A stretch of DNA of 64,000 nucleotides from Elsinoe ampelina (lineage: Eukaryota), in the NCBI GenBank assembly GCA_010093995.1, contig ML992512.1, forward strand, positions 575,319 to 639,318. The letters are read 5' to 3'. Below, piece by piece: positions 2,794 to 64,000 of this stretch; the stretch's first letter is position 1, and the number at the start of each line of letters is the position of its first letter. Under the pieces are notes generated by a model, which saw nothing but the letters and a program-made list of their open reading frames with translations, was not told the DNA's origin and did no database searches. A program made the translations under genes and the position numbers.

Positions 2794-5700
2794 CTACATA
2801 CATGTCACGTGCCGTGTCACACAAAACCAGCTCCTTGCATGGTTGTCGGGCGTACCCTGCAAATTCTCGGGACATGCTGGCCAAGACCCCTATCTCGACC
2901 GTCTAGGTGGTCACTCTGCTTATCCGGATCGCCCAATAGCTCCCACAGTCCCGAGAGGATTTCTGGTCTGCATAGGACATCAAACTCCCTATCACGGTGA
3001 CTTGTATTTCCGTATGTGTATCATGCGTCAGTCTAGCTCGCGTGCGGCAGGTCTTGGCCAGAATGTCGTGCCACCTCTCGGAACAATCCAGTAGCCTTTG
3101 CGGCACGAAATGTGGGACAAGCGAGAGGAGCCGTTGCCGTAAGGACGCTGCAGGTGTGAAGTGCTGCAGAAGAGGGTACTGCATGTACCATATCTACCGC
3201 ACCTAACCCGCCTCGTTGCTGTTGATGATCGCACCATTCTGTGCCGTAAATCGCCCTGCCCGCTGTGCAGCACTGTATGTACCAGGCGCTCAGGCCGCCC
3301 GTGGCTGTTTCCAGATCGGAGTAAAGACCGCTGTAAGCAGGCGAGTCGTTACAAAACGGCAAGGTAGCGAGGTATGGGAGCATGTGATGAGCTCCGCGGA
3401 GCTGGGAGCCTGGTTGGACGTGTTCGTTGGGCAGAGGGATAGGGGAGTTGATTTCCGGACTCCTCGGTGGCTTGCCTGGGCGCTGTGGGCCGTCACGGAT
3501 GAGCCTTGGTGCCAAAAGCAAGGTTCCCCTTCTGGGCCTCGCGAGAACCATGTGCATTGTGCAATGACGTGAGTCGGGCGTCGATGCATTGGTCAAGGTC
3601 ATCGCCATGGACCAGGGGAAGCCCATTGGTGCCCTCATGTGGATTGTGCAAGTGACTTTCTCTGCCCTGTTTGAATGTATTATAGTGCGGCGTGGTGCGT
3701 CTAGACCCTTGAATAGCCAGGCCTTCTCATGTTCGTCTGCCCTAAGCATGCTCAACGTGTTGATGAGGTCTGCCGACAGCGAGACGACTGATCTGAACTC
3801 GATGCGTGTCCTGCTACGCCGTGCATTGTACACGAACACTGAGTAAGCGAAGCTTTCCGTCACTGTGCGCAATAATCCCGGAGGAAATACATCTCGTCGT
3901 TACCATACTGAAGTTACGTACCCGTGCCGCCCTGAGACATTCCCGGTCTCACAATTTCCCCGTTGAGTGTTGTTGCTTGTGGCTTTTCAAGCAGTACCCA
4001 CAAGTGACCTGTTACAGTACTCCCAGTGGCGTATTTCCCTCCAAGTTCGGCCAAACGCCGGCACATTGGTGTGTGGTCATTGTTCCATTGCCCGACCATA
4101 ACCATTAACGGTGTAGCGTATCAACGTCTCGTATTGATGCATATGCAGGTCGAGAGCGGCGTCTAATTATTACCGAATGTCTTGACTTTTGGTACACTAA
4201 TCCTAGGGTCCGGGATGGCGAGAACAACCACACGAACGAGAATATGTGATATGTAGCAGGCGTTGAAAAACTCCATGGATGTTATGGAAGCATGATAGAG
4301 TGGGTTATATGACCGAGCCCTATCTGCATGGCGGTGTGTCAACCATGGTTGACACAACTTGACGGTGCGGGTGAACGGTTGAACATGTCACTGTTCCTCC
4401 AGGTCTGGCTTCAAGCATCGCAGGAGAGCTGCAGGCAATGGTGGAGGCCAAGACAACGCATTCGTCTCTTGCCGCAAATTTGAGGTCTTGCTTACAATCT
4501 ACTCATCGACGCAGAGAATCCACGGAGCTCGATGTGACCCTTCAGATGGATCGCAAGGCCGGTGTTGATCATGCTTGCAGTTCCCGAGACGCCACGCAGC
4601 ACATCGATGCCGCCGCTGAAGCCATCTATACGTTGCGGTGTCATTCATGATGTACAGTGAGTTGCATGGCTACATTTTTATCTTGGTGATGCCACCCTGC
4701 GACAGCGATGATCACTAGCGTCCAAAGCTGCACAACAGGTTCAAGGTCCACAGTACTGGAGTTTTAGCGCCGCTGCACTTCTGCAGATCTCCCTCAAATC
4801 CGCTTTGTTGCAGCGGTATCGAAAGACAAATCCAAGCCACGAATGGAAGGCAAGCGGAGAGCCCCGTCGAGATTCTGCGTTGGCATCCGTGAATGATCTG
4901 CTGCTGATCCACGCATATCAGGCGTCCTCGAGGAGCGTTCTCCAGTATCATAGATTTGATAGAGTGCTGCAGCACGATGATCAGTCCCAGCAAGGCATGC
5001 CGGTCATGTTCCTTGTTGTCAGGGCCAGCATGCGGCGTGGGTTCGTGCATGCCGTAGCAGACCAGCCAAGGTCACGCGATGTCAATGTTACTTTTCCATG
5101 AAGCTCCATCGTGGTCGATCGGCAAGCGCTGCCTTGGAGACTCATAGCGTTACAGGATCATCATCAGTTGGACGAGTGTCAAATCAGCAGGATGGCCAAG
5201 ATGGCTGTCCAAATTGATTGCGGGCGTTAAGATTGTGATCATTGATAGGCAAGGCGAAAGCAGCCGAGAGGAAATCAAGGGTAAATTCTGCCTATTTCGC
5301 CGCACTAATTTTCAAGTTGTGAAAAGAGCCGAAACCTTCGCAGGTGGCTTGCGCAGAACGGGGAGTAGGTTTTGAGAGAGTGGGTAGGTCAAGCATGGAA
5401 GAGGCGTGAACTTTGAAGCGGCGGACGTCGTTGGCCGTACGGAACGCGCCGTCGCTGGGGCATGTCAAGCGAGGTCTGCATGGCGCTTTTTGCCCAGAGA
5501 GCGGAACTATGCGCCCCTTTGCCGTGGCGTGGATTGTCGGTGAGGAGCTGGTGGCCTGCGGCATACTCTGTCGCATGTGATACGAGCGTGATGACTTGGT
5601 CTGTCTGAGGTTGTTGACCACCAGGATCAACTGTTAGGAGAGGAAGGGCAGTATCAGATTGTGCCAACCACGTCAAGATCTTCGATGCCGCGACGCTCCG

Positions 5701-18901: not shown

Positions 18902-19576
18902 ATGCATTTCGTCTCAACCCTCATCGCGGCTTTCGCTGCCACCACCGCCCTCGCCGCCCCTCTCGGCCCTATCCTCCCACCTTCAAACCCTTCGGCCAAC
19001 GCCTCTCCCCAGTACTGCCGCACTTGGCAAGCCTGCCTGACCGCCATCAACGCCGCTCGTTCTTCCCAAGAAGGCCTCCCCGCCATCGCCCTCCCCAGCA
19101 ACTGGTGGGACCTCACCTACGCCCAACGCGTCTGGGCCTTCATCAACCTCGAGCGCGTCTCTCGCAACCTCCAACCCTTAGCCACCATGATCAACACCTA
19201 CGACAGCCAAGTCCAGACCGCCGTGACCAACGACGCCGACCCCATCGCCCCTTACGGCGTGGGCAGCTGGGGCTCCATCTGGGCTGGCGGAGAGGGCATG
19301 TTCCCTCTCTCCGCAATCTATTTGTGGATGTATGTCGACGGACCCGGGGGCAACAACCTCGACTGCACCGCATCCAAAACGGATGGCTGCTGGGGTCACC
19401 GTGATATCATCCTTGGGGCGGACTTCAATGCTATTGATAGCTGTGCTGGCAAGGATAGTAGCGGGGCGGATAGTTTTGCTGCGTTGCTGCTTAGCCCCAC
19501 GACGGCTCCGGCTGCTGCGAATACGGTCATGACTTGGGATGCGCAGAAGGCGTTCAGTGCTCAGGGGACGTACTAG
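18902..19576 (+). CDS. Secreted CAP/SCP-like protein (224 aa, intronless)
   Basis: Signal peptide MHFVSTLIAAFAATTALA; CAP-like INLERVSRNLQPL, AIYLWM and GHRDIIL motifs; Cys pairs. Confidence 0.8.
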   Translation: MHFVSTLIAAFAATTALAAPLGPILPPSNPSANASPQYCRTWQACLTAINAARSSQEGLPAIALPSNWWDLTYAQRVWAFINLERVSRNLQPLATMINTYDSQVQTAVTNDADPIAPYGVGSWGSIWAGGEGMFPLSAIYLWMYVDGPGGNNLDCTASKTDGCWGHRDIILGADFNAIDSCAGKDSSGADSFAALLLSPTTAPAAANTVMTWDAQKAFSAQGTY

Positions 19577-19936
19577 GTTTGGATGGGAAGTAGAGGGTGA
19601 GGATGCAGAGGAGATTGAGTGCCAGGTGCCTCTTACATGCTTGTATATACTTGTCGACAGTCACCTCGATATCTTCCCTTCTTGAGATCACATTACGGAA
19701 ATAGAAGTCCGCTTTTAAAGGCAAATTGCTTTGGTATCACAGGTTCTGGCTCCAAATGAAGCACGATGATAAGTGACACCAGTAGGTAGTTCCGATGCGA
19801 GTAATGAGGCGCTGGTGTAAGCATACACAGCCTTTCGGAACCTCTGACAGTCGATCGCAGATCTGTAGAACACAAGTCGAGCAGCGTCTCAAGCTCGATC
19901 TTGGTTGCGCACTCCGCGGAGCTCAGCGGTCAATCT

Positions 19937-20968
19937 TTAGGTCAGCCCTTTCAATTGACCTACTATCCACTCTTTCGCCCTCACAGCCTCGGGTATACCA
20001 TAAAAGCCAGCGGGAGGCAATGTATTTGCTTCTCCCAATGCAACCTAGCACCCGCAACACCTTGTTCCCGAGCCGCATCACGAAACTCCAACGCACTTGG
20101 TGGCAAGATATCCCAGCCGCCCGTCACGCCAATGATCTTCGCTCCCGTCCTCGCCAAGGGTGTCGCATCAGCCATGATGGCAGATATCGAAGGCTGACCG
20201 GGATCCTCCGCTTGGGCCCATGTCCTTGCTCCGCTGTCATGTAACGAGATAGTCAAGACGGGATCTTTGCGCGCAACATCAACGATCGGGCCTTCCTTCC
20301 TCGTTGGTCCTAAGTCGACGGCAGGAGAAACGAGGAGAATGGCGTGTGGCTTAAGCAAATTGGGCCCGTCGATCACGCCCTTCCCGGCCTGGTGCAACGC
20401 CAGACATAGCGCCAAGTTTCAACCCGAGCTATCACCTGCAACTACAGTACCACCCGCTCGTCGGTACTCTCTGCCGCCTGCAAAATGCCATCGAAAAAGC
20501 GGGCCAGCACGGGAATCGTGTCAGCAGCCGGGGAGTTCGGAGCGAGTGGAGCGCCGAGCATCACGCTAAGTCCAGGTACTGTACCTGCCGTGCCAGCTCG
20601 GCACAGAACTTCCAGTGCTGTGAGGACGGGGGGTTTTGCCAGCCGCCGCCGGAGAAATAGTACATGCGCAGCCGCTTGGGCCCTGTCGCTCCCGCATGTG
20701 TTCCAGCTTTGGACAGGGTCAGGTCGTAGACGTACATGTCTCCGTCTTGCCGTTCTGTCACTTTGAGGGAGCGTGTAGCACTTTTGTGAGGTGTGAGCTT
20801 TTGCCATCCTGCGGGGAATGTCTTCTTGGGAGACACAAGGTGAGGTCGGAAAGGTCGCAGGATTGTTTGCAGTACCAGTGAGAAGGTGGACTGTGTATCT
20901 CGATGGTCGATTTCCACGCTGGATTCGTCGTTGCTAAGGGTGCTTCCTAGGAGAGATAAGAGCTTCAA
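19937..20968 (-). pseudogene. Alpha/beta hydrolase (HSL-like, Abhydrolase_3) pseudogene
   Basis: YYFSGGGW, PLAPNSP, VAGDSSG*NLA, SPAVDL, GGWDIL and QIHCLPL are spread over several frames. Lesions are +5 bp at 20577-20583, +5 bp at 20443-20449, a TGA at 20419-20421 and a frameshift near 20000. Confidence 0.9.
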
Positions 20969-21598
20969 GCGCGAACACTGTTTTTTGAATTCTTGTACGG
21001 GGTGTCCTTCAAATGTCGGGATACGCTTTGTGACTCCAACCCTGCAGACTGTGGACGATGGACAAGTGTAGCGACGAAAGCAGAAGCCCCTGCTACTTAC
21101 CGCAAATATCTATACTCAAGGCACATAGACACTGCTGTGAAACCGGAGCAGCACGGGATATGCAGTGGACTGCCAGGATCGTGCAGGCAAAGGCCAAAAT
21201 TGTTAAAGGTAGCCAGCACAAAGAGATGTGGAAGACGGAAGTGGCGTGACGTCATCAGCGGGCAGCAAATGGATGGCGGGCAGTCGAATTCAGATCAACT
21301 CGTGCTATTTCGTGCCTTTCCCACCAGTCATTGATTGAGATCTGGCCAGATCGGATTCGAGTGTAACCATCAACGACCTCACTAATTTCCAAAACGACAG
21401 AATCATCGTCTCAACGCAGAACGTCTGCTCTGTGCGTCTTGACCTGCGACAGACATACCAAATCTCAAAGCTCCACTTTTCCGGGCTCGTTTCATGATCA
21501 CATGTCAACAGGGATCTGGCTTGAGCACGCACTCACACTAGACTCTTCCAACCTCAACACAACTTGGCAACCTCACTTCTTCACCCACACAATCAATC

Positions 21599-22447
21599 AT
21601 GTCGCCAACTACAGCTCCCGACGCATCACCTACAGGCGGCGACAGGAAGCCAAAAGGTGAATCAAGACAGCATGTCTCATGTCGCGCTTGCTCACATTCA
21701 TGCCAGGTATTCTCAAGAACTCTGCTCAGCATGTATCGCCTGAATTGCGCACGTCACCAACAACAGAAGAGACGCCGGTAGCCAGGCCAGACCTCAACCG
21801 CGAGTTGTCAGAGAAGGAAATAGTGCAGATGAACACCAACATTAACGCGGGCGGGCACAGGAGGGGTTCGTCCAACCCACGTGGATCTGTCTCACGCAGA
21901 CAGTCCGGCACGGAAGGACCAGAGGCTGGATCTCCGAGACTGAGATGGGACGAGGCAAACCTCTACCTCAACGAAGGACAGATGGGAGGGAAGATGAAGA
22001 TTGACGAACCAAAGACACCATATGCCGGTCAATACGACCCGGAGGAGGACGACGAAGATATGCCCGCCATTGACCCCTCGGACATTGCAGTCGACGAGCT
22101 GGAGACACACAAGAGGAAGAAGCAGACAAAGACGGACGAGATTCCTGGACTTGACCTTGGTGAGCCTGAAATGGAAGGCCTTGAGCGCCCACCCTCGGAG
22201 GGAGAGAGACGAGTCATCTTGGACCCTGACCATATGGATGTTGACGGTGCTAGGCATGGCGAGGTGCCTGATAGTGTGCCTACCGAAGAAAAAGAGAAGC
22301 ACCGCAAATTCGAAGAAATGCGCAAGAAGCACTACGAGATGAAAAACGTCAAGAATTTACTTGGGTAAGAAGCATTCTTGATTGCTGAGATGCTATGTAC
22401 TGACTAGTTACAGGCATTCCGAAGATGGCAACGAAGATGAGCAGTAG
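21599..22447 (+). CDS. GLC8: Protein phosphatase 1 inhibitor-2 (Glc8/IPP-2), 3 exons
   Basis: KPK/GILKN formed across intron 1; [30 protein letters not shown]. Confidence 0.92.
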
Positions 22448-38131: not shown

Positions 38132-38351
38132 GTTGAACACTACCCAGTCGGTCCAGATCGTGCTCGCTGCGACGCTGACATAGATGACTTATCCATGACA
38201 GGCGGTGGAGAGACACACGACTGACTGGCATGCACTTTGATGAGGATTTCATGACGGCGAAGAAATGGATGTGGTGCCGCAAACAACTGTCGCTCCCGTT
38301 GACCACGTTTTTTGGTGCGCGACCACACGGCAAATCTGACGTCAACGCATA

Positions 38352-38391
38352 CAGTCGTTTTGAGTTCAACCGAGCCACCCCGGGCTTGGCG
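38352..38391 (+). repeat. Left TIR of Tc1-like element
   Basis: Exact reverse complement of 48656-48695. Confidence 0.97.
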
Positions 38392-38829
38392 GTACTCTTC
38401 ACCGACTTCTGCTTACCAAAATTGGCTAGCTAGAGGTCTAGAGAGAATATAGAGTCGAATAGCTTAACAACGCTGTCTATTTGAATGAAATTGAAGCTAA
38501 AAAAAGGTATAATAGACTAGTTAGTATATACTAACGTTACTAAATTATAGCTTATAAGTGTCCTTCTTCTATAACTAACTATTGCTCTAGCTATACGAAG
38601 AAACCTTTAAGGGCAGTATAGGAGGTAATTACGATATCTTCTACTCCTCTATTGTCGCCGCTAGTCTCTTCTTCTTTAAGGCACTTCTTAAGCTTATTAG
38701 AGAAGGTACTAGATAACCTTCGTTATAGTCTAACTATCTAGCTAAAGAGCTATATACTAGCGCTAGCGTAGGTAGCACCTTATCTAGAGGTTACATCCGC
38801 TAACCTAGCTCTTTAGAGGCTTATAGAGT

Positions 38830-40301
38830 AAGCTATAAACTAAGTTATACTACCTTTATAAGCTAGATCTTAGTAGCTGTCTCTTTAATTAAGGTTTCTA
38901 ACACCTATACTAGACTAGCTAAGGCAGTTAATTAAGTCGGATATAGCACTAGAGGAAGAGCTAGATATATAGGTAATAGAGGTGCTATAGTTATTATAAG
39001 TACTAGAGTTACCGGAGACTAATTCTAGTAACTTAGATATGCTCTATCTTAGTTAGATAGTAGAGGTAAAGCTAGTAGTAAAGTTTAGAAGTAAGACTCT
39101 ATACTATAATAAGCGTGTGTTTAGCTAGCTAAGTAATCTATCGTAGTTAGTACTAGCTAATTAAGTAGTAGAGAAGAGTAGTCTTATTACTTAAGCTATA
39201 CTTAAGCTACTTTTACTTAATTACGCTACTACCTATAAGCGTCTTAGTATATAGTAGCTATTTAGAGTAGTAATATTAGAGCTAGCTAAGATATAGAGGC
39301 TAGTTAATAAGCTCGAAGATTAGCTTACTAAGGATTACTAGTAGCTTAGGCTCGGCCTTACTACTAAGATAAAGAAGGTACTAATAGCTATAAACTCTAT
39401 AGCAAATTTAAGAGTTATATAACTACCTTTAACTATGCTAGTTCTAAGCTCTTTAATAGGTCTACTACTGCTACCTTTATAGTAATCCTCCCTTAGATTA
39501 ACGCTAGTAAGGATAGTATAGACTCTAGTAGCTAGTATAATACTACTGTCTTTATAGATAGTATAGCTAGCGCTACTATTATAAGGTCGAGGCTTAGTAA
39601 CGAGCTAATTATATAGTACGCTCGAGGGCGTAAATAGTAATAAGGAGCCTCTATTAGAGTTAGTATAGACTTATACTAATCGTAATTACTATAACTATAA
39701 GAGGTTATACTAGCGTATATTAACTAGTAAGCACTACTAGATTATAACAGAGAATAAGTATACCTAGGCTACTACTATTCGCAATAGTAAAGCTACTATT
39801 AATTGTTCTCCTATAGGTCTTATATCAAGCCTTAATTACTTAAAGGCCTCGAGGAGTGTTAAAAGCGCTCTACTAACACTACCGATACTAACGCCTTTAG
39901 CGTCTTTAGCGCCTTTTATACTCCCTCTAACACCTATTAACTATATTAATATTATAAACTCAATTACTCCTTACTAGCTATAGTAGCGCTTAGGGCCTAT
40001 AAACGACTTAAGATCCTTACCTATTACCTCTAAGGCTAACCCTTATAAAGTTTTAACTAAATTCTTTAAGTAGATAAAGAGAAAGAAAAGCTTTAAAAGG
40101 GATATTTAGGTGCTAGATTAGGTTAAATTTAAGCTAAAGAAGGAGAATTATAACCTCGATAGTATAAGAGATATACGCTTAGATAGGTAAAGGGATATCT
40201 AGGCCTTTAATAAAGGCTTTCTATACTAGATTTAAAGCTAAATTAGCCCTTTTAAGCGCTAGTATTACTCTAAGATAGTTACACGAGCTAGATTAAATTA
40301 A
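38830..40301 (+). pseudogene. RIP-mutated second ORF of the Tc1-like element (function unknown)
   Basis: One frame reads as protein from at least 38949 to ~40300 if TAA/TAG are restored to CAA/CAG/TGG. C-terminus approximately RSSPITSEADPxEVLTEFFEWM...LKEENYDLDG. Boundaries approximate. Confidence 0.6.
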
Positions 40302-40315
40302 GTAAGTTAGATACC

Positions 40316-40628
40316 TATTACGAACTAGTAGAACAGCTAGAATATAGGGACGTTAGGACTAATTAAGCTACCGAGATTATTACGTGACCTAGCCCGACGT
40401 TTACTTAGTTCTCTATCTTCTCTAGCGGCTCTACCTCTAAAACTATAGAGTACGTAGGTTACTAGCGGACGTGTACTCTATGTTGCTCTCGACTCTCGCT
40501 ATAGAGTACATAGAGTATATAGAGAACACAATAGAGAATATATATATATAGGAATAGTCCTTACCTTATATAAGTACTATAGTTAACCTTATCTAGATAG
40601 TAAACACTAGTATTGCTAAGGCTAGCCT
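40316..40628 (+). repeat. 5' LTR of gypsy element (runs into assembly gap)
   Basis: Colinear with 46784-47096, differing only by transitions. Confidence 0.93.
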
Positions 40629-40738
40629 NNNNNNNNNNNNNNNNNNNNNNNNNNNNNNNNNNNNNNNNNNNNNNNNNNNNNNNNNNNNNNNNNNNNNNNN
40701 NNNNNNNNNNNNNNNNNNNNNNNNNNNNNNNNNNNNNN
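40629..40738. other. Assembly gap
   Basis: N run. Confidence 1.
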
Positions 40739-42725
40739 CTTACTATAGTATAGCACGCTATAAGGTTAATAAGTAACTCTTGCTCTAAGTTACTATTAGT
40801 ATCTTCGATCGCTAGTAAGCTAGAAAAGCTTACTATTAACAATATGTCTACTACTAGTTTAACCTTAGGCAAACATAGAAGGTCTTTTAGTATAGAAGGA
40901 TAGAGCAGGCCTAAGTTAGAGGTAGAACTCTTCTACGGGGACTACGCCTACTTAAGGCGCTTTCTTATTTAACTTAAAGCCTTCTTCGCTCTAGAGGGAG
41001 ATAAGTATAGTAACAACGCAGCAAAGGTCCTCTATGCTAGGATATACCTTAAGAGCGCCGCCTTCGAGTAGTTTAAGCCTTATATAAGTAGCTACCTAGA
41101 TAGATAACTAGGCCTAGATATAAAGGCTATCTTTAAGAGCTTTAGTATCTTCTAGGCAAAGATTAAGTAAGTCTTTAACGTATCTAACAAGGAACGCGTT
41201 ACTATAACAAAGATTTAACAATTATAACAACGTAGGTCTATAGCCTAGTACTATTCCTAGTTCTAATAACTCGTAATACACCTAGACTAGGATAATAGTA
41301 CTAAACACTTAGTATTCTATTAAGGACTAAGTAACTTAGTTAAAGACTAAATAATACCTAAGCTGCCTAATAGCCTTTAGGAACTAGTAGACACTATAAT
41401 TACTATTAATAACAGACTTTACAAACGACGTATAGAACGTTATAGGAGATATAAGGTAAATACTAAATATATACGTTCCTCTCAAAACTATAGAGACTCT
41501 ATAGAACTTAATACTATATACGAAGGCTGCCTCTTATAGGTATAAGGCTACGGTCGTAGAGGAAAGTACCTTAGTAGAAAAGAGAGAGAGAAGTATAGAC
41601 AAGATAATCTATATTTTAAGTATAAAAGACCTAGGCATTAAGCTAGAGACTACTAACAAGAGGCGCTAGCCGATAGATTATATATAATAGTTGCCGGGCT
41701 AGTAGAAAAAAAGGCCGACACTACTATAGAAGACCTAACAACCTTTAGCGTAGGCAAGGAAATATAGAAGGGGTCTATAACGACTTAAGAGGTAATAGAA
41801 TTCTCTTTGGATGTTATACTTAATATCTCCACGACTAATAGCAAATAACAAAGCTAACACACAACGCTATTATAGATAGTATATTATAATAACTCTTGTT
41901 ATATTTACTTATTAGACAAGTAGAGATCTAGTTAGTTCCTATATAAGCTATCTAAGTATAGGCAACTAATAAAATAGCTAGACTAGAAGCTTAACCTAGA
42001 AAGGCTTTCTATAATTAGTAGTAACATTAACTAACCTTAGAAGATAGTTAGCAATAATTACTAATATACGATTATTAAGACAAAGTATTAAGACGTAAGT
42101 GCTATATAATAATATAGTAGTCTTACCTTTAGCTCTTATAGCGAACTATAAGGAAAGGCGTATTATATATTACTCTAGAAATATATAAATCTAGATTGCG
42201 AATAGTACTATACTATCTACTTATACAATATGCTTAAAGAAGATACTATTAGTCTTAAATATACTATAGACTTCTCGGTAATCGAGATAGATAGTACTAT
42301 TCCCTATAGCTAAGTAAAAGAATATACTTAGTGTAGTCTTACTAACTATAACTATACTAGGGGCAGTAGCGATAAAGAGGAATATAACGAAGAATACACT
42401 AAACAACTACGATGTAATAACATAAATAAGAACTTATTCGACAACGACGACGACGATATACTACTATCAGGCAGACGACTTAAAGTATACCTTATAGAGA
42501 TATAGAGGAATTATATAATAATATATACCTACTACTAGAATAGGACGCGATAAGATAAATCTACATAACTTGTTTTTGTCTTTAATACTAACGCCTAGCT
42601 ATACCTAGAAGAAATAGTTATACCTATATAGGTGTATAACACTACTTAGTACAACTAGTAGGGAATTATCGGACTTTATAGTTACTAAGGGACTTAGGCG
42701 CTAGAAGTTTACCTTACTATATTAA

Positions 42726-43485
42726 NNNNNNNNNNNNNNNNNNNNNNNNNNNNNNNNNNNNNNNNNNNNNNNNNNNNNNNNNNNNNNNNNNNNNNNNNNN
42801 NNNNNNNNNNNNNNNNNNNNNNNNNNNNNNNNNNNNNNNNNNNNNNNNNNNNNNNNNNNNNNNNNNNNNNNNNNNNNNNNNNNNNNNNNNNNNNNNNNNN
42901 NNNNNNNNNNNNNNNNNNNNNNNNNNNNNNNNNNNNNNNNNNNNNNNNNNNNNNNNNNNNNNNNNNNNNNNNNNNNNNNNNNNNNNNNNNNNNNNNNNNN
43001 NNNNNNNNNNNNNNNNNNNNNNNNNNNNNNNNNNNNNNNNNNNNNNNNNNNNNNNNNNNNNNNNNNNNNNNNNNNNNNNNNNNNNNNNNNNNNNNNNNNN
43101 NNNNNNNNNNNNNNNNNNNNNNNNNNNNNNNNNNNNNNNNNNNNNNNNNNNNNNNNNNNNNNNNNNNNNNNNNNNNNNNNNNNNNNNNNNNNNNNNNNNN
43201 NNNNNNNNNNNNNNNNNNNNNNNNNNNNNNNNNNNNNNNNNNNNNNNNNNNNNNNNNNNNNNNNNNNNNNNNNNNNNNNNNNNNNNNNNNNNNNNNNNNN
43301 NNNNNNNNNNNNNNNNNNNNNNNNNNNNNNNNNNNNNNNNNNNNNNNNNNNNNNNNNNNNNNNNNNNNNNNNNNNNNNNNNNNNNNNNNNNNNNNNNNNN
43401 NNNNNNNNNNNNNNNNNNNNNNNNNNNNNNNNNNNNNNNNNNNNNNNNNNNNNNNNNNNNNNNNNNNNNNNNNNNNNNNNNNNNN
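42726..43485. other. Assembly gap (probably hides the protease and start of RT)
   Basis: N run. Confidence 1.
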
Positions 43486-46179
43486 CTTAAGAACTATATC
43501 GATAAGTACTTACTTAAAGGATTTATACAACTATTAAAATTACCTATTGCGCACGAAGTGCTTTTTATACTAAAAAAGGATAAGATATTACAAATATACA
43601 TTAATTACTAGAAACTTAATACACTTACTAGGAAGAATCGCTATCCCTTACTAAGGATCGATAAACTTTAAGACCGACTACTTAGAGCTAAATAGTTTAC
43701 TATAATTAACATTAGGGATGCCTATTATTAAGTATAAATAAAGAAGGGCAAGGAGTAGAAGACAGCTTTTAGGACGTAATAGAGTCTATATAAGTACCTC
43801 GTTATACTCTTTAGGTTAACTAACGCTCCTATAACCTTCTAAGAGTTAATTAATAACACTCTATAAGAATACCTTAACGATTTTATCTTAGCATATTTAG
43901 ACAATATTATTATCTTCTTAAAGATATATAATAAACACGTAGGACATGTTTATAAAGTGCTATAGAAACTAAAAGAAAAAGACCTACTAGTAAAACTCTC
44001 TAAGCATAAGTTCTATAAATATAAGATATAATTTCTAAGCTATGTTATATCTACTAATAGCATCGGACCTAATCTAAAGAAGATCGAGTTAGTAAACAAC
44101 TAGCTAGAACCTACGACAGTTAAGGAGGTTTAAGCGCTACTAGAGTTCTTTAACTACTACTATAAGTTTGTTAAAGGATTCTCTAAGGTAGCTACGCTAA
44201 TATCTAACCTTACGAAAAAGAAAACTAGCTTTATCTTCGACAAGAGGTGTAGGTAGGCCTTTAAGAAGCTAAAGCTTAGACTTACGATAGTACCTGTCCT
44301 AGTACTCTTCGACCTAGACTAATAAGTACTACTAGAAACAAATGCCTTGGACTTTGTAATAGAAGCGTATCTAGCGTAGAAGAGCGTAGAAGGACGACGC
44401 TACTCGATTGTATACTACTTACGAAAAATAACCGGACCTAAACTTAACTACGACATATACGACAAGGAATTACTCGCGATTATAGAAGTGTTCTACGAAT
44501 AGAGAGTATACCTAGAAGGGATAACCTTACTCGTATAAGTCTATACCGACTATAAGAACCTTCTATATTAGACAACAACTAAGGTTCTTAATAGATAATA
44601 GGTTCGATAGTTAGAAATACTTATAAGCTATAACTTCTAGATCTACTATATTAAGGGATTAGAGAACAGCGAAGTAGATGCTTTTAGCCGCTAGCCGGAT
44701 TACTTAAAAAACATAACAATAATAGAGGCCTCTATACTAAAGTAGTAGAACAGCGCTCTAGTCTATAAGCACCCGAAGGTAGAGTAGTTATATAGCCTTA
44801 CCTAGGAGCTTACGTAAGAACGAAAGAAAGAAGTTATTTAAATACACTATAATAACTTAACGGCGGGACATAGTAGGATTAATAAGACTATCGAACTTAT
44901 TACACGAAACTACCTCTAGAAAGAACTCTAAAACGATATTAAGACGTATATTGCTACCTGCGATATATGCTATAAGTCTAAGCACTCTCGATATAGACTA
45001 TATAGCCTACTATAACTCTTGCCACTACTAGACAAACTATAGTAATTAGTTATAATAGACTTTATAGGACCTCTACTGCTATTAGAAGAACCTCTTATAG
45101 GTGTAAAGTATAATAGCATTCTAGTTCTAGTAGATAGGTTTACGAAGTATTACTACTTTGTCTTATATAAGACAATAGTAACTGCCGAGGATATAGCCTT
45201 TACTTTCCTTTAAATAATTGTTTTACGACATAGAGTACTATAAGACCTAATAACTAATAGAGATAAGCTATTTACGTTATAATTCTAGCAATTATTTATA
45301 GACCTACTAGAAGTTAAATATAAGCTATTAACCTTCTTTTACTTATAAACGGACAGATAAACTAAACGGGCAAATTAAGTACTAGAGTAGTACCTACGAT
45401 ACTACCTAAACTATAAGTAAGACTTATAGGCGACGCTATTACTGCTCGTAGAGCTTGCTATTAATAACAGAAAGTTAGCAAATAGAATTTTACTATTCTA
45501 TATAAACTATAGAATACACTCGGATCTATACTACGACATACTTAGAATTAAGCTAGTATCTAAGGATACTAATACACTAGTAGCTAACATTAAGAAACTA
45601 CACGACTAGCTATACTATAATATAGCATTTATATTATAAAGAATAGTAGAGTTTACTAACCGAAAGAGAATTACAGGACTAATTCTATAGGAGAAAGAGA
45701 AAGTTTACCTCCTTAGTAAAAATATTAAAACGAAACAACTAAGTAAGAAACTTAACTACACTAAACTAGGACCCTTTAAGATCCTAGAAAAGAAAAATAA
45801 GAACGTATATAAACTAGAACTACTAAGACATATAAGGATTTATCTAGTCTTTTATATATTACTACTAGAGAAAGTACTATAGAATACTATACCTAGATCT
45901 ATCGAACTAGAGAAAGAAATATAGGAGCTATAGTATAAGATAGAAAGAGTTTTACGTTATAAACTTATAAAAGGAAAACGCTACTATCTTATTTACTAGA
46001 AGGGACATTAGTATAGTAAAGTAATATAGGAACTAGAGAAGTACCTTACCTTATAAGTAATCCTAGATTACTAGATTAAGAACCTATCCTAAGTAAACCG
46101 ACTAGACAGACCTAGTACTCTAAATACTAAACAAAAACGAGAATGTCTAAGGAAGATTACTTAACTAATAGAAGTACCT

Positions 46180-46709
46180 TAATCGTTGCTAAGTAAGGAA
46201 CTCTAATCGAAGTTAGGTATAAATAACTACTAGTCCTATAGTAGGACGGGATTCACTGATAATAGTATTTCCTCCTACTCTAAGACTTAAATATAAGTCT
46301 CTTCTAGAGAGATTACTTTCTCTACCTTGTCCTTTAACTTTTATATCTCTTTACGTAGGCGAAGCTTATTACCTATAGCTCTTTAACAAGCCTCTTTTGC
46401 CTTTTTATAAGCTTCTTTAGCTTTCCTTCTAGTAGCCTTAGCTATAACTAATTCCTTTCGTAAATAAATATACTTAGACTAAAGACGCTACTATTCCGAT
46501 TTTATTACCTAAATATTATAACTTAAGTAGTTACTTACGACATACTAGCTATAGATACCCGACCGAATATAGACCTTATAGTCTAGCCCCTTCGATTTGT
46601 AATAAGAATAAGCCTATAGCATATTAGTTCCGAATAGTTCAATAAACTCTAAGAGATTCTTTCGTGCGGATGTACTAGATTTGCTATACCTTTAATAACT
46701 AGGAGGCAT
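46180..46709 (-). pseudogene. Antisense accessory ORF in the gypsy 3' region: six-Cys zinc-binding motif plus coiled coil (RIP-mutated)
   Basis: ATG at 46709. TAT/TAC codons restored to TGT/TGC give Cx2Cx5Cx8Cx2Cx6C, followed by an E/K/R/A-rich heptad region. 3' end approximate. Confidence 0.65.
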
Positions 46710-46783
46710 ATTTAGTATATAGCGTATAAGGATAAGGAAGAATACTTACTTGTTAGGACAACTTAATTAAAGGAGGAGAGTAA

Positions 46784-47246
46784 TATTACGAACTAGTAGG
46801 ACAGCTAGAATGTAGGGACGTTAGAACTAATTAAGCTACCGAGATTATTACGTAACCTAGCCTAACGTTTACCTAGTTCTCTGTCTTCTCTAGTAGCTCT
46901 ACCTCTAAAACTATAGAGTACGTAGGTTACTAGCGGACGTGTACTCTATGTTGCCCTCGACTCTCGCTACGGAGTATATAAAGTATATAGAGAACACAAT
47001 AGAGAATATATATATATAGGAATAGTCCTTACCTTATATAAGTACTATAGTTAATCTTGTCTAGATAGCGAACACTAGTATTGCTAAGGCTAGCCTTTGT
47101 AATACTATCTAATTGTACTTTATTATCTATAAGATATACCTTCTCCGACTCTTACCTTAGTGCTATACTACTATAGAAGTAGAACTACCTCGTTCCTAGC
47201 TTAGCTTAGACTACTAGTGTAGGCTATGTTTAGACAGTTCGTAACA
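46784..47246 (+). repeat. 3' LTR of gypsy element (463 bp)
   Basis: Follows the PPT, ends GTTCGTAACA, then the TSD. Confidence 0.95.
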
Positions 47247-47522
47247 ATACCTTACTATCTCGGCAGTCGAAATAGACACTTTTATCTAGTTTATAGCAGC
47301 TAATATAGATACTAATTTACGTAGCGTAATAGACAATTTAACTAGCTCGGCAGCCGAGATAGATATTAATCTAGTTTAGCTACTAAACTAGACTTAGTTT
47401 ATCTAACTCGAAGTAGTACACGTATAGTATAGAGTAGTTATAGTAGTAGTAAAGAGTTTTTACTAGGTCTTAGTATTAAACTTATTTAATATAAGTAATT
47501 TCTTACGTACTAAATAGATCCC

Positions 47523-48536
47523 CTATAATCTTACGCTATATCTATAGCTCTTAAAGTGCGCCTTAGCGTATAGTCTACTATACGAGTAGATAGCTAGCTC
47601 TAAGAAATTAGCGTATTTCTCGTACCTAGTAACTAAATTATAGTATTACTTTACCTACGCCTTTAGTACTAAGAAGAATTACTTAATAGGATTAAAATCT
47701 AGCGAATAGAGCAGTAGGTATTTAAGGTAACTTCTATACTCTTATACTAGCTCCTTTACCTTATTACTCTAGTAAATTAAAGTATTATCTATAACAAAGA
47801 TTATACTAGCTAGAAGCTCTAGTATTATTATATCTATTAGCTAGCTAATAAAGATCTTACTAGTGATTAATCTATAATAGATTAAGGTACTAGGGAGATA
47901 GCTATTAACAGTAATAGCTAGTAATACGCTCTACCTCTTACTATGCTACTTTAGCTAAATATCTATATACTTCTTACTAACGGGCGCCTACCTATACCTC
48001 CTTTACACTATATGCTTATTATAAGCTAACTTATTAACATAAACGATTCTATTAACTAGCTAAAGTATATACCTTTAAGTCTAATTTGCCCTAAGTATTA
48101 TATCTCTTTTAGCTACTACCTTCTTAGCTACCTTTCGAGACTACTACTAGTACTAGATTATATACTAGATTATACTTAAGTACACCTAGTAATTATATAC
48201 CTCCCTTAAGAAGGCTTAAACTTCGTTAAGATAAGTAGTAGAAATGTTATTTAGGTAGGCTATTACCTCCTTAGATAGGTTAGTATAGAAAGAGCTTAGC
48301 TATAAAGGACTTATATCTTCTAAGAAAGAGGTAAAAGTATAAGGGCGTAGTATATAAGCTTTAATAGAAGGATAAGGAGTACTAAAGAACTTAAGGGATA
48401 GTTAAATTTGACAGATTATAGCTCTAGCTACCTTAGTAGTAGCATAAATAGCATAATTAGTATACCCTTTAGCAAGTAAGAACTATATGTCTACTAGTTT
48501 TAATTTGGCTATCTAATAATTAACTATAACAGTCAT
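47523..48536 (-). pseudogene. DD34E Tc1-like transposase (~337 codons), RIP-mutated
   Basis: Single frame from ATG 48536. De-RIPed IVYVDESA, FVMDNASIH, YLPPYSPDFNPIE; 34 codons counted between the second D and the E. Confidence 0.92.
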
Positions 48537-48655
48537 AACCTAATTAGAGTAGTATAGCAACTATTATACCTTTTTTTAGCTTTAATTTATCAGTATTCTC
48601 TATAGACTTCTAGCTAGCCAAATTTGATAACGAGAGGTCGACGCGGAGTACAACA

Positions 48656-48695
48656 CGCCAAGCCCGGGGTGGCTCGGTTGAACTCAAAACGACTG
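48656..48695 (-). repeat. Right TIR of Tc1-like element
   Basis: Exact reverse complement of 38352-38391, followed by TA. Confidence 0.97.
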
Positions 48696-48893
48696 TATAA
48701 CAAAAAGTGGTCAAGGATTGGATATTTTGGCCCAAATGCAGCATCACAGGATCTGCCGGCGCATCATGCTGCTCGTGATGATCACAGGTCCATTCGAGTC
48801 ATGTATCTATCTTCATTGCCCTCAATCGCTACGCTCATGTCATGCCATCTCATTACCTTCCTGTATACTCTGCAAAGCTTGTCTCGGCACTTC

Positions 48894-51800
48894 CTACGCG
48901 CGAAGATAGTCGGCTGCTTCCTTTTGCGACAATCCCAAGACGTTCATAAAGTAGTCCAGCCTAGAATCATTAGTAATGGATACGACTTCACCGAAAGTTA
49001 CACGTACATGACATCGTACTTGACCTTGCGACGGAATTGGTCAAGTTCGGTCTGCGTCTTTTCCCGGACTACTTGCTGTCGTTTGGGATCGATACTTTTG
49101 ACTCGCATTCGAAAGTGTGCAGAGACAGGTCGGTGATCACTTGTGTGCACTTCCCATCGTCGGTAATCGTCACATTTGATACGGCCCAGTCCTCTGAACA
49201 AAACACGATCACACCAGGCGGGCGATCTTTTCTTGTCAGAGGTGTCGTATCTGGTCATGCCGACATCGTACTTGTAAGTGGGTGCAAATGTGATGGGCAT
49301 CTCCTGGAAGAGTCGCAAGCGGAACGCAGGGTTGCGCTTCTTGGAGAGAATGAGCTGGTCTCGCTCCAGCAGTCGTGACAAGTCGTTCTTCTCGACTGCT
49401 CGAACGACCGAGTCTCTTGTCATGGCGTCTATCCGGTAATTAAGATCGCCGTTGAGGATACAGATTTCGTGATCCAGAATCATAGACCCGTCGCCACCAC
49501 CAACGAAGATGTCTGGTGAAGCAACGGATGGTGGTAGATTCTCGCTCTCCATGATACCCGCCACATCGTTGTTGCGATGCATTGTCTGGGTCTGTCCGGC
49601 TGCAAGATGACAATTGATCAAGCAAATTGAGGTGTCATCCAGGATCATGCGAAGTATTAGTGCTCCTTTGTTGCCATGCAGACCACCCATGCCTCGCTTG
49701 ACTTCGGCACCGTTGAATTGTTTGACTCTTGGTCGAAGTGATGTTTTGATGAATACGCAGCTGAAAAGTCCCACCAGATTCGCTGTTTGTAAAAGGGTAT
49801 AAGTAGAAGATGCGGGCATAAATTCGTCAATGCATCGTACGAGGTGGTCCCGCCACGCTCGATATTGATGGCTCATCTTGTCATGATCAGATGAGTCTTT
49901 CTTTTTACTTTTGAAAAAGCTCTTTGCAGTAACTTTCTTGTCTTCGAGGTCTACCAGCTCTTGGAAACCAAAGACCAGAATGTCAGGCGGCGAGTGCAAG
50001 CTCAGATACTCTCGGAAGAAGTTTTCGTCTTCCTGGCTGTTGCGCAGTGCCGTTGGCTTTGATGCTCCGGCATTCCAGGTCAGCACGGAAGCTGAGATTT
50101 CTTCAAAATTGCAGTACTCTTCATCTTTCTTCTGCATGCGGTCTTCGAGCCAGTCTTGTTCCAGCATTCCGTCCCAGATACGCAGGATATTGTCCATGCC
50201 CAGTGTGACCACATTGAATCGATCTAGCTTCCAGATGCTGCTCTGGTCTGCAATGATACCGCATATTGGCTCGCTGTGTGCCCGCCAGTCTTTCTTGACG
50301 GTCCACGGCGTCGTGCTGGTGTCGTACACGAACGCCATCCCAGTGCTGTAACCGGCCCACAGCAAGTTGCCCACGCCAGTCATTGCGTTGATCTTGTACA
50401 CACTGACGTTGAAGACGCCAATGAGAGAATAGTCTTTCTTGTTGTACACTGAAACTTTCCCGTCCGTGTGACCAAAGTAGACTGCATTTGGCTGACTGCT
50501 GATCTTGGCTGCGCAGGTAATGTCACCTGTGCCTTCCTGGAACAGTGGTCGAGTGAGTACCGAGAAGCCGCTGTCGGAGCTTGCAACAAGATTGTACACG
50601 TAGATGTATTTTCCTACCGCCATCCACAGGCAGTTCCCGACTACGATAGACGCCGAGTGGCCTCGAGTGACTCTAAACGCCTGAGGCGTGACATCTAGGC
50701 TCGCGACACTGTCCGGCGAATTGTTCTTCCAGTTCAGCAATTTCCCGTCATCGTCCAGAGACCACAAAGCTGAAGCGTGCCTGAAGATACTCACAATCTC
50801 ACCTCTGGCATGTGCTGCATGTCTGGTATTCACTATGTGACGGCTTGGAATGTCAAACTGATGAATGTCTCCCATGTTGGTGCCGAGCCACAGTCGCTGA
50901 CCTTCACCAAGTGGATTTTTCGCTGGGATCCAGGCCATCGACGTAACCTTGATGCCTTCCCCGAGAGCTTGGGTCGTAATTGATTCGCCGGTCTTGATGC
51001 TCCATATGCGTATGTGATATCCGCCGGTGCAAATGTATTCACCGCAAGCAGTGAACAGTTTGGTGTCATAGCCCACGCCAAGCTCCCACGGACGGTGCTG
51101 ATACCTTGGTGGTCGACGGTTGGCTTGCGAAGCGTCTGGAAAATCTGACAGCCCAGCAGTACCTGTACTAGGCAAATCCTCGACATCATCTGCACGAATG
51201 CCAGATGCTCCTTCGGCTCCTAGTATTCTCTGTTGGCGGTCCATTGAAGGCCTCTCGAGTGATCTTCTGGTCTCCATGGAGCGTCTTGGAGCGGGGACTG
51301 CAGGTGGTGCTGACTTGCCAATTGCTGCGTCGGGCTGAAGCCTGACTGTCACAGCCACCGCACCATTCGTCCGATGAGCACTCTTTGGTTGTGCTGGAGC
51401 TGACTCGGATCTCGTTGCTGTCTCATCAATTGACGTCCGAGCTGGTATGCGTTGCAACTTGGACGGACTATTTCGGCCGGACAGTGTCTGACGGAATCCA
51501 TGACTGGAACTTGCACGCTTGTCTTGAGCTCCGTCATGACTCATGTTCTCGTCTAGCTTGTCAGCTGGTAAAGACGGTGTCCTTTCGAATTTTCGTGGTG
51601 GCTGCAGATCAAATTGGCGTTGTGCTGGTCCATCTGACCTTGCCAGCGGCACAAAATATGATCGAGCAGCTGCAAACGCCGGGACAGTCGACCGTGCCTT
51701 TCTGTGGTCTTCTAATCTGGTCGGTGAGCCTTGCTCGTGTGGCGTACTCTCGGAACTACTAGGCGGGGTACTGAACGGCGAGATTGCTTTATCTGACTTC

Positions 51801-52477
51801 AGGTCCAGAGTCATCGGCTCGGCTTGGGGCGTGCTGCCGGTAGATGAGCTTGGAATGTTTGGCTTCCCGGCGCGATTGACAGGTGGCGGACCGCTGGCGC
51901 CAAATTTTGGACTTCTTTGTACAGTAGGAGAGAGCATTGGAGCGTGAAGGTTCTCGGCAGAAGTGGCGGCACTCGAAATGGATCCGCGGGCAGGGAGAGG
52001 CGGTTGGAACGTATGCACAATCGTCTTTGGAGACACATTCTGCTGCGTTCGCTGTGTTTGCTGGATGGTATGTATAGACCGAGTTGGACTTTGCGATCCA
52101 GTCGACGTGGCTTGCCCCTTTGGTGGAGATTTTGGAGAATTGACTGTAACTCGAGGAGGGGATACCTGGCGGGAGGGAAGTTGGCCTATCGAAAGTGGTC
52201 GCTGCTGTCGTGTTGGTGTGTGTCGAGGTTCTGCGATACTCCCGTCGCTGATCCCTAGACCATTTGAGGCCTGAAAGGCTGGCCGCGGCAAGTCCAAGGA
52301 CATGCGAACAGGTCCTCCTGCTGGAACATCGCGAATTTGTGGAGGAAGCGGAGATTTGACGGTGGATGGAGTCTGTGACGGTTTGCGCTGGTGGCCGAGA
52401 TTCTCAAACTTGGAGCGAAGAGACGAGACGGGCTTGATGGAGCTGTCGTCTGTCCCTTTGCCCTGCTCCTCGACCAT
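48894..52477 (-). CDS. Inositol polyphosphate 5-phosphatase with Pro/Ser-rich N-terminus and WD40-like propeller, 2 exons
   Basis: TWNAG, FGFQELVDL, GNKGA, NCHLAAG, GDLNYRI, PTYKYD, PAWCDRVL, SDHRPV. Terminal intron (~49008-48961), then LDYFMNVLGL..*. Confidence 0.94.
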
Positions 52478-53069
52478 GATGGTCAACAAGTGCGGCGGGA
52501 CTACCTCCGCGTGTGTCTGGCCTCTGACTCGGGGCGCCTTTGTTCCATTCCACGATTCTTTCACGTCCTAGGATCAGATGATAGGTAGAGAGGGGATTGT
52601 CGAGGTAGAATCAAGGTAGGAAGCGAGCGACTGGATATTTGCAGGACCGAGGGCGCTGCAAGACTTGGGTGACGACTGCGGTGCGTGCTTGGAGGGGTTG
52701 CGCGTCAAGTTGAGCGTCTCGTGTAGAGAGAGTAACCAGGGCTGCAGGATCGATGACAGGACATGTGAAGGTTGATGTTGAGGCTATGCTTGATTGTCGC
52801 GTTGCCGATCTCAGAGGGCAGCTGTGACCACATAAACAAATGTCAAACTATTACTACCCCACGAGTGCCTGGCGGCGTCGTCTTTTCTCGGCATGCATGA
52901 TTCTCACCTGCATATCGCGAACTTCGGGCCATCTTGCCGAAAATCGCTGAAACAGAATTGGTCTTGGCACAGGGCACGCCGCACGCGGCTGATCGCATCT
53001 CTTGCTCTCCACTTTCCAACGAACGCGTTTGGGAGGGGCCTTCAGATTCACACAACTTTGCTACGCACA

Positions 53070-62800: not shown

Positions 62801-64000
62801 CACTCGTCGAGGTTGACTCAACGGATGAGGTCGCCCTTACTATGGCGCTTGCAGTCACGGACACTGGAAGCGGGTCGTAGGCAGACGAACCGGAACCGGG
62901 CGAGGTGGACCCCAGGTCCATTATAGAAGTCGATTGATTAGCCAGCGACGAATTCAGACTAGAAGAAGAATTGTTCGACGAGACCGTCAGAGACTGGTAG
63001 AGGAACGGATCCTTTGAAGAAGTAGAAGCCGAGCTCCGGGACGAGCTGGGAGATGTACTATTATATATGTTCGTCAGAAGACCAGGTGAAGAAACAGCTG
63101 CATCCATGGATGACAACAAGAATATCGAGCTTGCCAGTGAGCTAGACGCTGAGCTTATGCTGGAGCCTGGGGTTGCACTCTCGATACTCGACGACAATGA
63201 CGAGCTACCGAAGAATGGATCTGCCACGCTTGATGAACTCGACGGAAAGAACTCCTCGCTAGACGCAGGAGTGCTCGGCAAAGAGCTGTTGGTATCTGGC
63301 GTTTCAATCCCCGAAGATGTTGCCGTATCAAGCGGTGATGCGTATGGCAAGCCCGAGAATATGACAGCGCTGGACGAATCCAAGGACAACGAGGAAGATG
63401 AGGCAATGGAGTACTCGGTTCCTGGCAGCGCTGTGGCAGTGATCGTTGGTGGGAGCGAAGTCGAAGAAGTCATCAAGCGAGATGATTCTAGAGTGGTCCT
63501 TGGTGCTATTGTCGACGCAGGGCTTGTCGACGCCAGGCTAGTGGTGGTGAATGATAAATCCGACGACGTGGTCAATTGCGTGTCCGATTCCAAAGGAAGC
63601 GGTCCAGAAGATGGGTTTGGAGACGAGAGTGATGATGAGTAGAGACTCCTCGGAGACAGTATCGATTTACTTTGACTGCTTCCATCGCGGGCTGCTGTAG
63701 AGGTCAAATTGGAGAGGAGACCTTCGGAGGTTGGGCTCATTTCTGAACGAGATGGAGAATTCGAGACAGACATGGATTGGATTCTGCTAGTCACTGGCGT
63801 AGCAGGTTGGGCGGACTGACTATTGCCGGGAGTTTCTTGAACGTTGCTGCTTGCCACAGAAATGGACTCCGAGGGAGCTGGCAGAAGTACCGGTATCTCT
63901 GTGGTCGAGATGGGCTGCAAAATCGTTGGCGTCATCGGGGCAAGTGAAACGGTTTGAGGTTCATCGAGCAAGGGAGTCGAGGACGATGAGCTGGTGGGTG
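56894..64000 (-). CDS. Giant Ser/Thr-rich mucin-like protein (>2300 aa, 5' end outside window)
   Basis: Continuous S/T/P-rich frames on both sides of the gap at 58496-58620, which lies in a 12-bp STSS tandem repeat. Ends SCAGRIDALGLCVL*. Confidence 0.8.
58458..58658. repeat. 12-bp tandem repeat CTTGAAGATGTG spanning an assembly gap
   Basis: About 3 copies on each side of the N run 58496-58620. Confidence 0.9.

Follow-up and report, generated by a model that had tools for sequence, protein, structure and literature searches.

Does a gene that has lost its reading frame at two short heptamers record the visits of a transposon that has since left? This question is raised by a hydrolase gene of Elsinoe ampelina in a stretch of 64,000 nucleotides (contig ML992512.1 of assembly GCA_010093995.1, positions 575,319 to 639,318 of the forward strand), which we call the window and whose numbering is used throughout. 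An earlier reading made from the letters alone, here called the sequence-only reading, had taken the gene to be broken by two excision footprints of a Tc1-like element, TACTGTA and TACAGTA. Both heptamers are indeed present, 134 nt apart from start to start (Table 1). On the evidence set out below, the locus is very probably a dead alpha/beta-hydrolase-fold-3 esterase gene of Elsinoe in which two of the three frameshifts are canonical Tc1-like excision footprints.

Table 1 Features of the esterase locus and of the neighbouring transposon in the window.
Feature	Coordinates	Strand	Description
Abhydrolase_3 (hormone-sensitive-lipase type) pseudogene	19937..20917	-	From GTG (ATG in the orthologues) to the stop after ...QLKGLT
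Lost start codon, GTG	20915..20917	-	Met in three orthologues; VEIDHRDTQS versus MEIDHRQSQS
Putative footprint 1	20577..20583	gene on -	TACTGTA on the plus strand, TACAGTA on the coding strand; +5 frameshift between ...AELARQ and VPGLSV...
Putative footprint 2	20443..20449	gene on -	TACAGTA on the plus strand, TACTGTA on the coding strand; +5 frameshift between ...ERVV and VAGDSSG
In-frame TGA	20419..20421	-	In homologues, the residue after the nucleophile motif (GDSSG-G/A-N)
Third frameshift, without TACWGTA	19996..20004	-	...PLAFM versus YGIPEAVRAK... in another frame; tblastn HSPs stop at 19999 and restart in the other frame
'Intron' of the public E. ampelina model P0139	20389..20584	-	196 nt, GT...AG; removes both putative footprints, GDSSG and the TGA
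Tc1-like DNA transposon	38350..48697	-	TA duplications at 38350-51 and 48696-97; CAG...CTG ends at 38352 and 48695
DDE_3 (Tc1/mariner-type) transposase remnant	47646..48005	-	PF13358, 37.8 bits against a cut-off of 28.6, E 2.2e-9
Nested Ty3/Gypsy-type LTR retrotransposon	40316..47096	+	LTRs at 40316-40628 and 46784-47096
Neighbouring gene	49001..52567	-	Protein identity to Elsinoe batatas 96%, E. fawcettii 86%, E. australis 80%, Sphaceloma murrayae 76%

Identity and relatives of the broken hydrolase gene

The best full-length relatives of the hydrolase are the proteins P0001-P0003 from E. australis, E. fawcettii and S. murrayae, and in tblastn searches three frames were needed for these orthologues to span the pseudogene. 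Frame A begins with VEIDHRDTQS..., continues through ...RMYYFSGGGWQNPPSSQHWKFCAELARQ and closes in ...FCAELARQ, with its last base at 20585. Frame B (20579-20448) reads VPGLSVMLGAPLAPNSPAADTIPVLARFFDGILQAAESTDERVV, opening with VPGLSVMLGAPLAPNSP and closing with ...STDERVV, and frame C (20442-20422) reads VAGDSSG up to the in-frame TGA, beyond which it resumes with NLALCLALHQAGKGVIDG...HCLPLAFM. A Pfam profile search matched the C-terminal piece to PF07859, Abhydrolase_3 (32.1 bits against a cut-off of 25, E 1.2e-7); the N-terminal and middle pieces, searched singly against Pfam, gave no match. The conceptual reading carries a GDSSG nucleophile motif and a FSGGGW oxyanion GGG motif, and the GxSxG nucleophile together with the oxyanion GGG motif is what we take to define the Abhydrolase_3 or HSL-type esterases.

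The pseudogene thus resembles this family in the Pfam match of its C-terminal piece, in the GGGW motif of the oxyanion loop and in the GDSSG nucleophile elbow, and it is 50-64% identical to Elsinoe and Sphaceloma proteins that NCBI names 'hormone-sensitive lipase'. It differs from the family in lacking an ATG and in having three frameshifts and one in-frame stop. The residues ahead of GGG are F-S in the pseudogene and F-A in the orthologues, whereas an H is usual in the family. The locus has no reading frame left from which the enzyme could be made, given the GTG start, the two +5 frameshifts, the TGA and the third frameshift, and upstream of the GTG no in-frame ATG was found before the stop at about 21110.

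With X placed at the breaks, the pseudogene is 63-64% identical to the E. australis and E. fawcettii orthologues. These two intact Elsinoe orthologues are 65% identical to each other, and the gene evolves fast. Since even intact orthologues are only 65% identical, the divergence of the pseudogene is not evidence of great age. Two protein-model searches gave no match to a hydrolase model in E. batatas, which is the nearest relative when judged by the neighbouring gene (Table 1), and no orthologue protein model above 64% identity. The orthologues of the hydrolase and of the neighbouring gene lie on contigs of equal size within each of three species, which is consistent with synteny.

Among the ORFs neighbouring the pseudogene, the only Pfam match was to IPP-2, at 21661-22365. 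The ORF that adjoins the pseudogene on the plus strand (18902-19573) opens with a signal-peptide-like stretch (MHFVSTLIAAFAATTALAAP...); it belongs to no Pfam family and may encode a small secreted protein.

Position and size of the two insertions

Frames A and B are 5 nt apart (20584-20580), as are frames B and C (20447-20443), and the frames come together again, as the sequence-only reading had claimed, when 5 nt are removed from each heptamer. The resulting reading, AELARQ/VPGLSV at the first junction and ERVV/VAGDSSG at the second, is collinear with the Elsinoe orthologues. The E. fawcettii protein P0002 reads ...FCAELVRK/VPGLSVTLVSPPLAP...AGERVV/VAGDSSGGNLALCLALH, and the pseudogene ...FCAELARQ/VPGLSVML-GAPLAP...TDERVV/VAGDSSG(stop)NLALCLALH, and both junctions are residue-exact against P0002 after the removal (P0002: AELVRK/VPGLSV and ERVV/VAGDSSG). 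At the same junctions the Logan protein P0140 reads AELVRQ/VPGLTV and ERVV/LAGDSSGG. Comparison with these two proteins at the protein level bore out the expectation that the 5-nt insertions would fall exactly at both heptamers. Once the 5 nt are taken out, one TA is left at each site inside a GTA valine codon, and valine is found here in the closest orthologues by protein comparison. Relative to the unoccupied state, the net gain appears to be exactly 5 bp at each site, a size that rests on protein collinearity at 50-64% identity.

The spacing of conserved motifs gives the same size. The interval from GGGx to PLAP spans 33 residues in 18/18 homologues and 101 nt in the pseudogene, or 99 + 5 - 3, so that the fit of footprint 1 to this invariant spacing requires a separate loss of one codon (3 nt) nearby, at VML-GA. 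The next interval, PLAP to GDSxG, spans 36 residues in P0001-P0003, in P0004 and P0011 and, by hand count, in P0140, within a range of 32-42 over the 18 homologues; the pseudogene has 113 nt, or 108 + 5. A net +2 insertion at footprint 1 was also considered, as it would spare the 3-nt deletion, and was rejected because VPGLSV, a match of six residues, would then be displaced by one position in the comparison with every one of the homologues.

Between the two heptamers lies homologous coding sequence (52% identity to P0002 over 46 residues, E 7.5e-9). On either strand the heptamers read TA-CAG-TA ... TA-CTG-TA and so mimic the ends of a 137-nt element (20443-20583), an arrangement with a 1 in 4 chance if the central base resolves randomly. 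An insertion of 137 nt was rejected as an explanation, the interior being coding sequence collinear with the orthologues.

Sequencing support for the insertions

The locus was compared with Logan contigs of sequencing runs. The contigs of runs X1 and X3, at depths of 215 and 810, match positions 19700-21300 over 1601 bases with 0 other letters and 0 gaps, and thus both runs that reach the heptamers carry them. X1 and X3 come from different samples and studies; X1 is possibly the source of the window itself, and hence perhaps not independent. Runs X4, labelled as another organism, and X5, from another sample, gave short, low-depth contigs that are identical to the window at 19928-20384 only and stop short of the heptamers. 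The agreement of X1 and X3 rules out an assembly slip at the heptamers, and the reads support the insertions, as the sequence-only reading had required.

A suspicion of sequencing or assembly errors could be founded on the three N runs in the window, which mark the assembly as unfinished. Contigs that were assembled separately for two samples and studies, one of them maybe the source, nevertheless match all 1601 bases without gaps, and a five-base insertion outside a homopolymer is an unusual kind of sequencing error. That the 5-nt insertions are such errors is therefore vanishingly improbable.

The public gene model

The damage had been expected to escape annotation, and the public E. ampelina model P0139 shows how, as it hides both heptamers inside what is very probably a false intron. 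With 100% identity, this protein of 186 residues falls on the locus in two blocks, 20737-20585 for residues 1-51 and 20391-19984 for residues 51-186. The model takes an internal Met (MYVYD) as its start, 60 codons downstream of where the orthologues begin, and fuses ELARQ straight to AGKGVIDG across the 196-nt gap. Its C-terminus is in the wrong frame (FMVYPRL), and the conserved YGIPEAV...QLK tail is missing.

If P0139 were right, 20584-20389 would be a real intron, the product would be a shortened protein of 186 residues, and the frameshifts would have no effect on it. The perfect mapping with a frame-keeping GT...AG gap speaks for such an intron, but in three frames the sequence inside the gap aligns collinearly with coding sequence of the orthologues, the GDSSG nucleophile among it, and 0/18 homologues lack the segment. 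The internal start and the wrong-frame end without its tail likewise argue against the model, and we regard it as highly improbable that P0139 is correct. Even if 20584-20389 were spliced, the product would lack the catalytic serine. A shorter GT...AG intron, 20584-20436, was rejected as well, since it leaves GDSSG out of frame and would cut away conserved coding sequence. The intron of P0139 appears to be invented and to hide the two footprints and the loss of the catalytic serine; the locus should be annotated as a pseudogene.

Chance expectation and replication slippage

The heptamer alone is not enriched: TACWGTA occurs 8 times in the window against 7.52 +/- 2.64 times in shuffles. Of the other six sites, four (10478, 12252, 36860 and 51920) fall within long ORFs that show no interruption, and the sequence around the remaining two (4013 and 13098) has no convincing coding frames; none of the six could be called a footprint. 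The signal above chance is the coincidence of heptamers with the two +5 frameshifts, not the number of heptamers. When 5 nt were inserted at random into the coding sequence of the pseudogene, TACWGTA arose in 1030/2,000,000 trials (5e-4), or about 3e-7 for both sites jointly.

A second null model addressed the main alternative, by which both insertions are replication-slippage duplications (of GTACC and GTAGT units), each altered by one later substitution, and the likeness to footprints is accidental. Both sites fall short of a perfect 5-nt tandem duplication; by inspection, the best register on the coding strand matches a 5-nt tandem repeat at 4/5 positions at both sites (GTACA/GTACC and GTACT/GTAGT). 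This similarity, the third frameshift of the same gene, which looks like slippage by loss of one TATG unit, and the fact that a decaying pseudogene locus gathers substitutions all lend slippage some plausibility. It requires two events per site, however, both ending on one 7-nt signature, and TACWGTA results from only 95/27,120 combinations of a 5-nt tandem duplication with one substitution (3.5e-3), so that even granting the substitutions the joint figure for both sites is about 1e-5. If they are excision footprints, a single insertion-excision cycle per site predicts both sequences exactly, and slippage is, in our judgement, a clearly improbable origin of the two insertions.

Further lesions and the order of events

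Besides the two putative footprints, the pseudogene carries three disabling lesions, which brings the total to five: the lost ATG, the in-frame TGA and the third frameshift (Table 1). The position taken by the TGA is G or A in 18/18 homologues. On the protein alignment, the third frameshift is most simply read as the loss of one unit of TATG-TATG (-4), that is, as an ordinary slippage deletion.

Since three other disabling lesions are present, the footprints need not have inactivated the gene. The statement of the sequence-only reading that the gene is broken by the two footprints holds insofar as both coincide with exact +5 frameshifts, and it has to be qualified in that the lost ATG, the TGA and the third frameshift are also there. 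In the same way, with five lesions present, the proposed hit-and-run inactivation is one possible order of events among others. A footprint, rather than the lost ATG, the TGA or the -4 frameshift, may have killed the gene.

A Tc1-like element near the pseudogene

The sequence-only reading had also named a Tc1-like element with TA/CAG...CTG/TA ends in the vicinity, and this element was recovered 17.8 kb from the pseudogene (Table 1). It was detected by reading positions 37600-41200 and then by blastn with the left end, and one copy, that within the window, was examined; a scan without gaps for TACAG...CTGTA pairs whose ends match gave nothing convincing, and a generic inverted-repeat scan missed the element. 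Its left end reads TA/CAGTCG... (38350/38352) and its right end ...CGACTG/TA (48695/48697), and its inverted repeat is perfect over 40 nt and traceable with indels to about 165 nt. The DDE_3 remnant covers profile positions 15-135 of 146 and is full of stops. A TA duplication, terminal inverted repeats and a DDE_3 match above the cut-off place the element in the Tc1/mariner group, its transposase not being intact.

Over 39001-49000 the GC content is 15-36% per 1-kb window, a low value typical of RIP degradation of the element. The outer ~100-165 nt (38352-38520 and 48530-48695) have normal GC and are identical or near-identical, in contrast to the heavily AT-rich interior; the ends seem to have escaped RIP. 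The nested retrotransposon, whose LTRs are 94% identical over 313 nt, has Pfam matches to RVT_1, RT_RNaseH, Integrase_H2C2, SH3_Tf2-1 and Retrotrans_gag and holds N runs at 40629-40738 and 42726-43485.

The sequence-only reading had ascribed the footprints to the family of this element or to another with the same ends. The CAG...CTG ends do match, but three bases cannot name a source. CAG/CTG ends are common to most Tc1-like elements, and the element at 38350-48697 therefore cannot be named as the donor. Its family, rather than another one with CAG ends, may have made the footprints, and the two visits may have been linked, for instance by a local hop.

Elsewhere in the window, a second AT-rich block (1-3000, 32-39% GC) lies at the left edge and has no blastn similarity to the 38-49 kb block. 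GC skew is very strong at 57001-59000 (0.63 and 0.51 per kb), and a minus-strand frame at 58413-63998, with an N run at 58496-58620, stays open for 1861 codons up to and beyond the edge of the window and matched no Pfam family.

Discussion

In the excision of Tc1-like elements with CAG ends, the alternative between A and T in the footprint stems from the central mismatch that forms when two CAG overhangs pair. Applied to the Elsinoe gene, the established mechanism would begin with an element inserting at TA and duplicating it. On excision the transposase would cleave the non-transferred strand at a point 3 nt into the element at either end, which would leave each flank with TA and a 3' CAG overhang. 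End-joining would then pair the overhangs with a central A:A mismatch, to be resolved to A or T, and the product would be TA-C(A/T)G-TA with a net gain of 5 nt, after a single insertion-excision cycle per site. Both sites carry this form, which is the canonical Tc1 excision form of the Sleeping Beauty type.

According to section 19 of PMC6943129, the cut that Tc1/mariner transposases make in the non-transferred strand lies a few nucleotides within the element, end-joining leaves the first or last 2-4 transposon bases, and Sleeping Beauty canonically leaves 'either 5'-TACAGTA-3' or 5'-TACTGTA-3'' as its footprint. The statement of the sequence-only reading that Tc1/mariner elements with CAG...CTG ends leave TA-CAG-TA or TA-CTG-TA on excision agrees with these canonical footprints (PMC6943129, same section). 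The Elsinoe scars share with the footprints of Sleeping Beauty and CAG-ended Tc1-like elements the 7-bp sequence TACAGTA or TACTGTA, with three terminal bases between two TA, as produced in Sleeping Beauty by a 3-nt staggered cut and end-joining (PMC6943129, same section). Sleeping Beauty footprints are experimental and have a known donor, whereas those of Elsinoe are natural fungal scars whose donor is inferred.

The scars may also be set beside those of other members of the superfamily. Impala and Fot1 of Fusarium oxysporum (Tc1/pogo-type) are likewise active fungal elements of the Tc1/mariner superfamily that insert at TA and excise with short scars, as in the nitrate reductase gene, and these scars typically consist of TA and three end bases. 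The scars of impala and Fot1 differ in their setting. They were obtained as laboratory revertants, whereas the Elsinoe scars are fixed lesions in a wild pseudogene. Tc1 of Caenorhabditis elegans, whose footprints were reportedly described by Plasterk in 1991, belongs to the same superfamily, targets TA and also leaves end bases behind after excision. Tc1 and Tc3 cut 2 nt inside the element and typically leave shorter scars, whereas the Elsinoe scars fit the 3-nt stagger of the Sleeping Beauty type. In the literature covered, which took in few subscription journals, we found no report of natural Tc1-type footprints disabling fungal genes or of Tc1 in Elsinoe.

PMC2874221 names Fot1 and impala among the naturally active elements and documents local hopping as a habit of Sleeping Beauty. 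That local hopping took place at the Elsinoe locus, or that the gene is a hotspot, as the sequence-only reading had put forward, would be conjecture. We consider it rather unlikely that the whole of a wider picture holds, in which the Tc1-like elements of Elsinoe act as hit-and-run mutagens. In that picture the neighbouring donor would have hopped locally into the gene twice, one of the footprints being the first inactivating lesion, and 5-bp scars of this kind would be a recurrent, genome-wide source of pseudogenes, unseen by repeat masking, RIP indices and annotation, and outlasting the copies destroyed by RIP.

The mechanism itself is textbook knowledge, and the locus is a clean natural example of it and a warning to annotation rather than new biology. 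A cut-and-paste transposon can leave gene-breaking damage that is invisible to repeat finders, RIP indices and gene predictors. In RIP-active fungi, 5-bp scars may be the sole dated trace of former DNA-transposon activity, and a genome-wide survey of +5 frameshifts with TACWGTA would be a cheap and testable gauge of such activity in the past.
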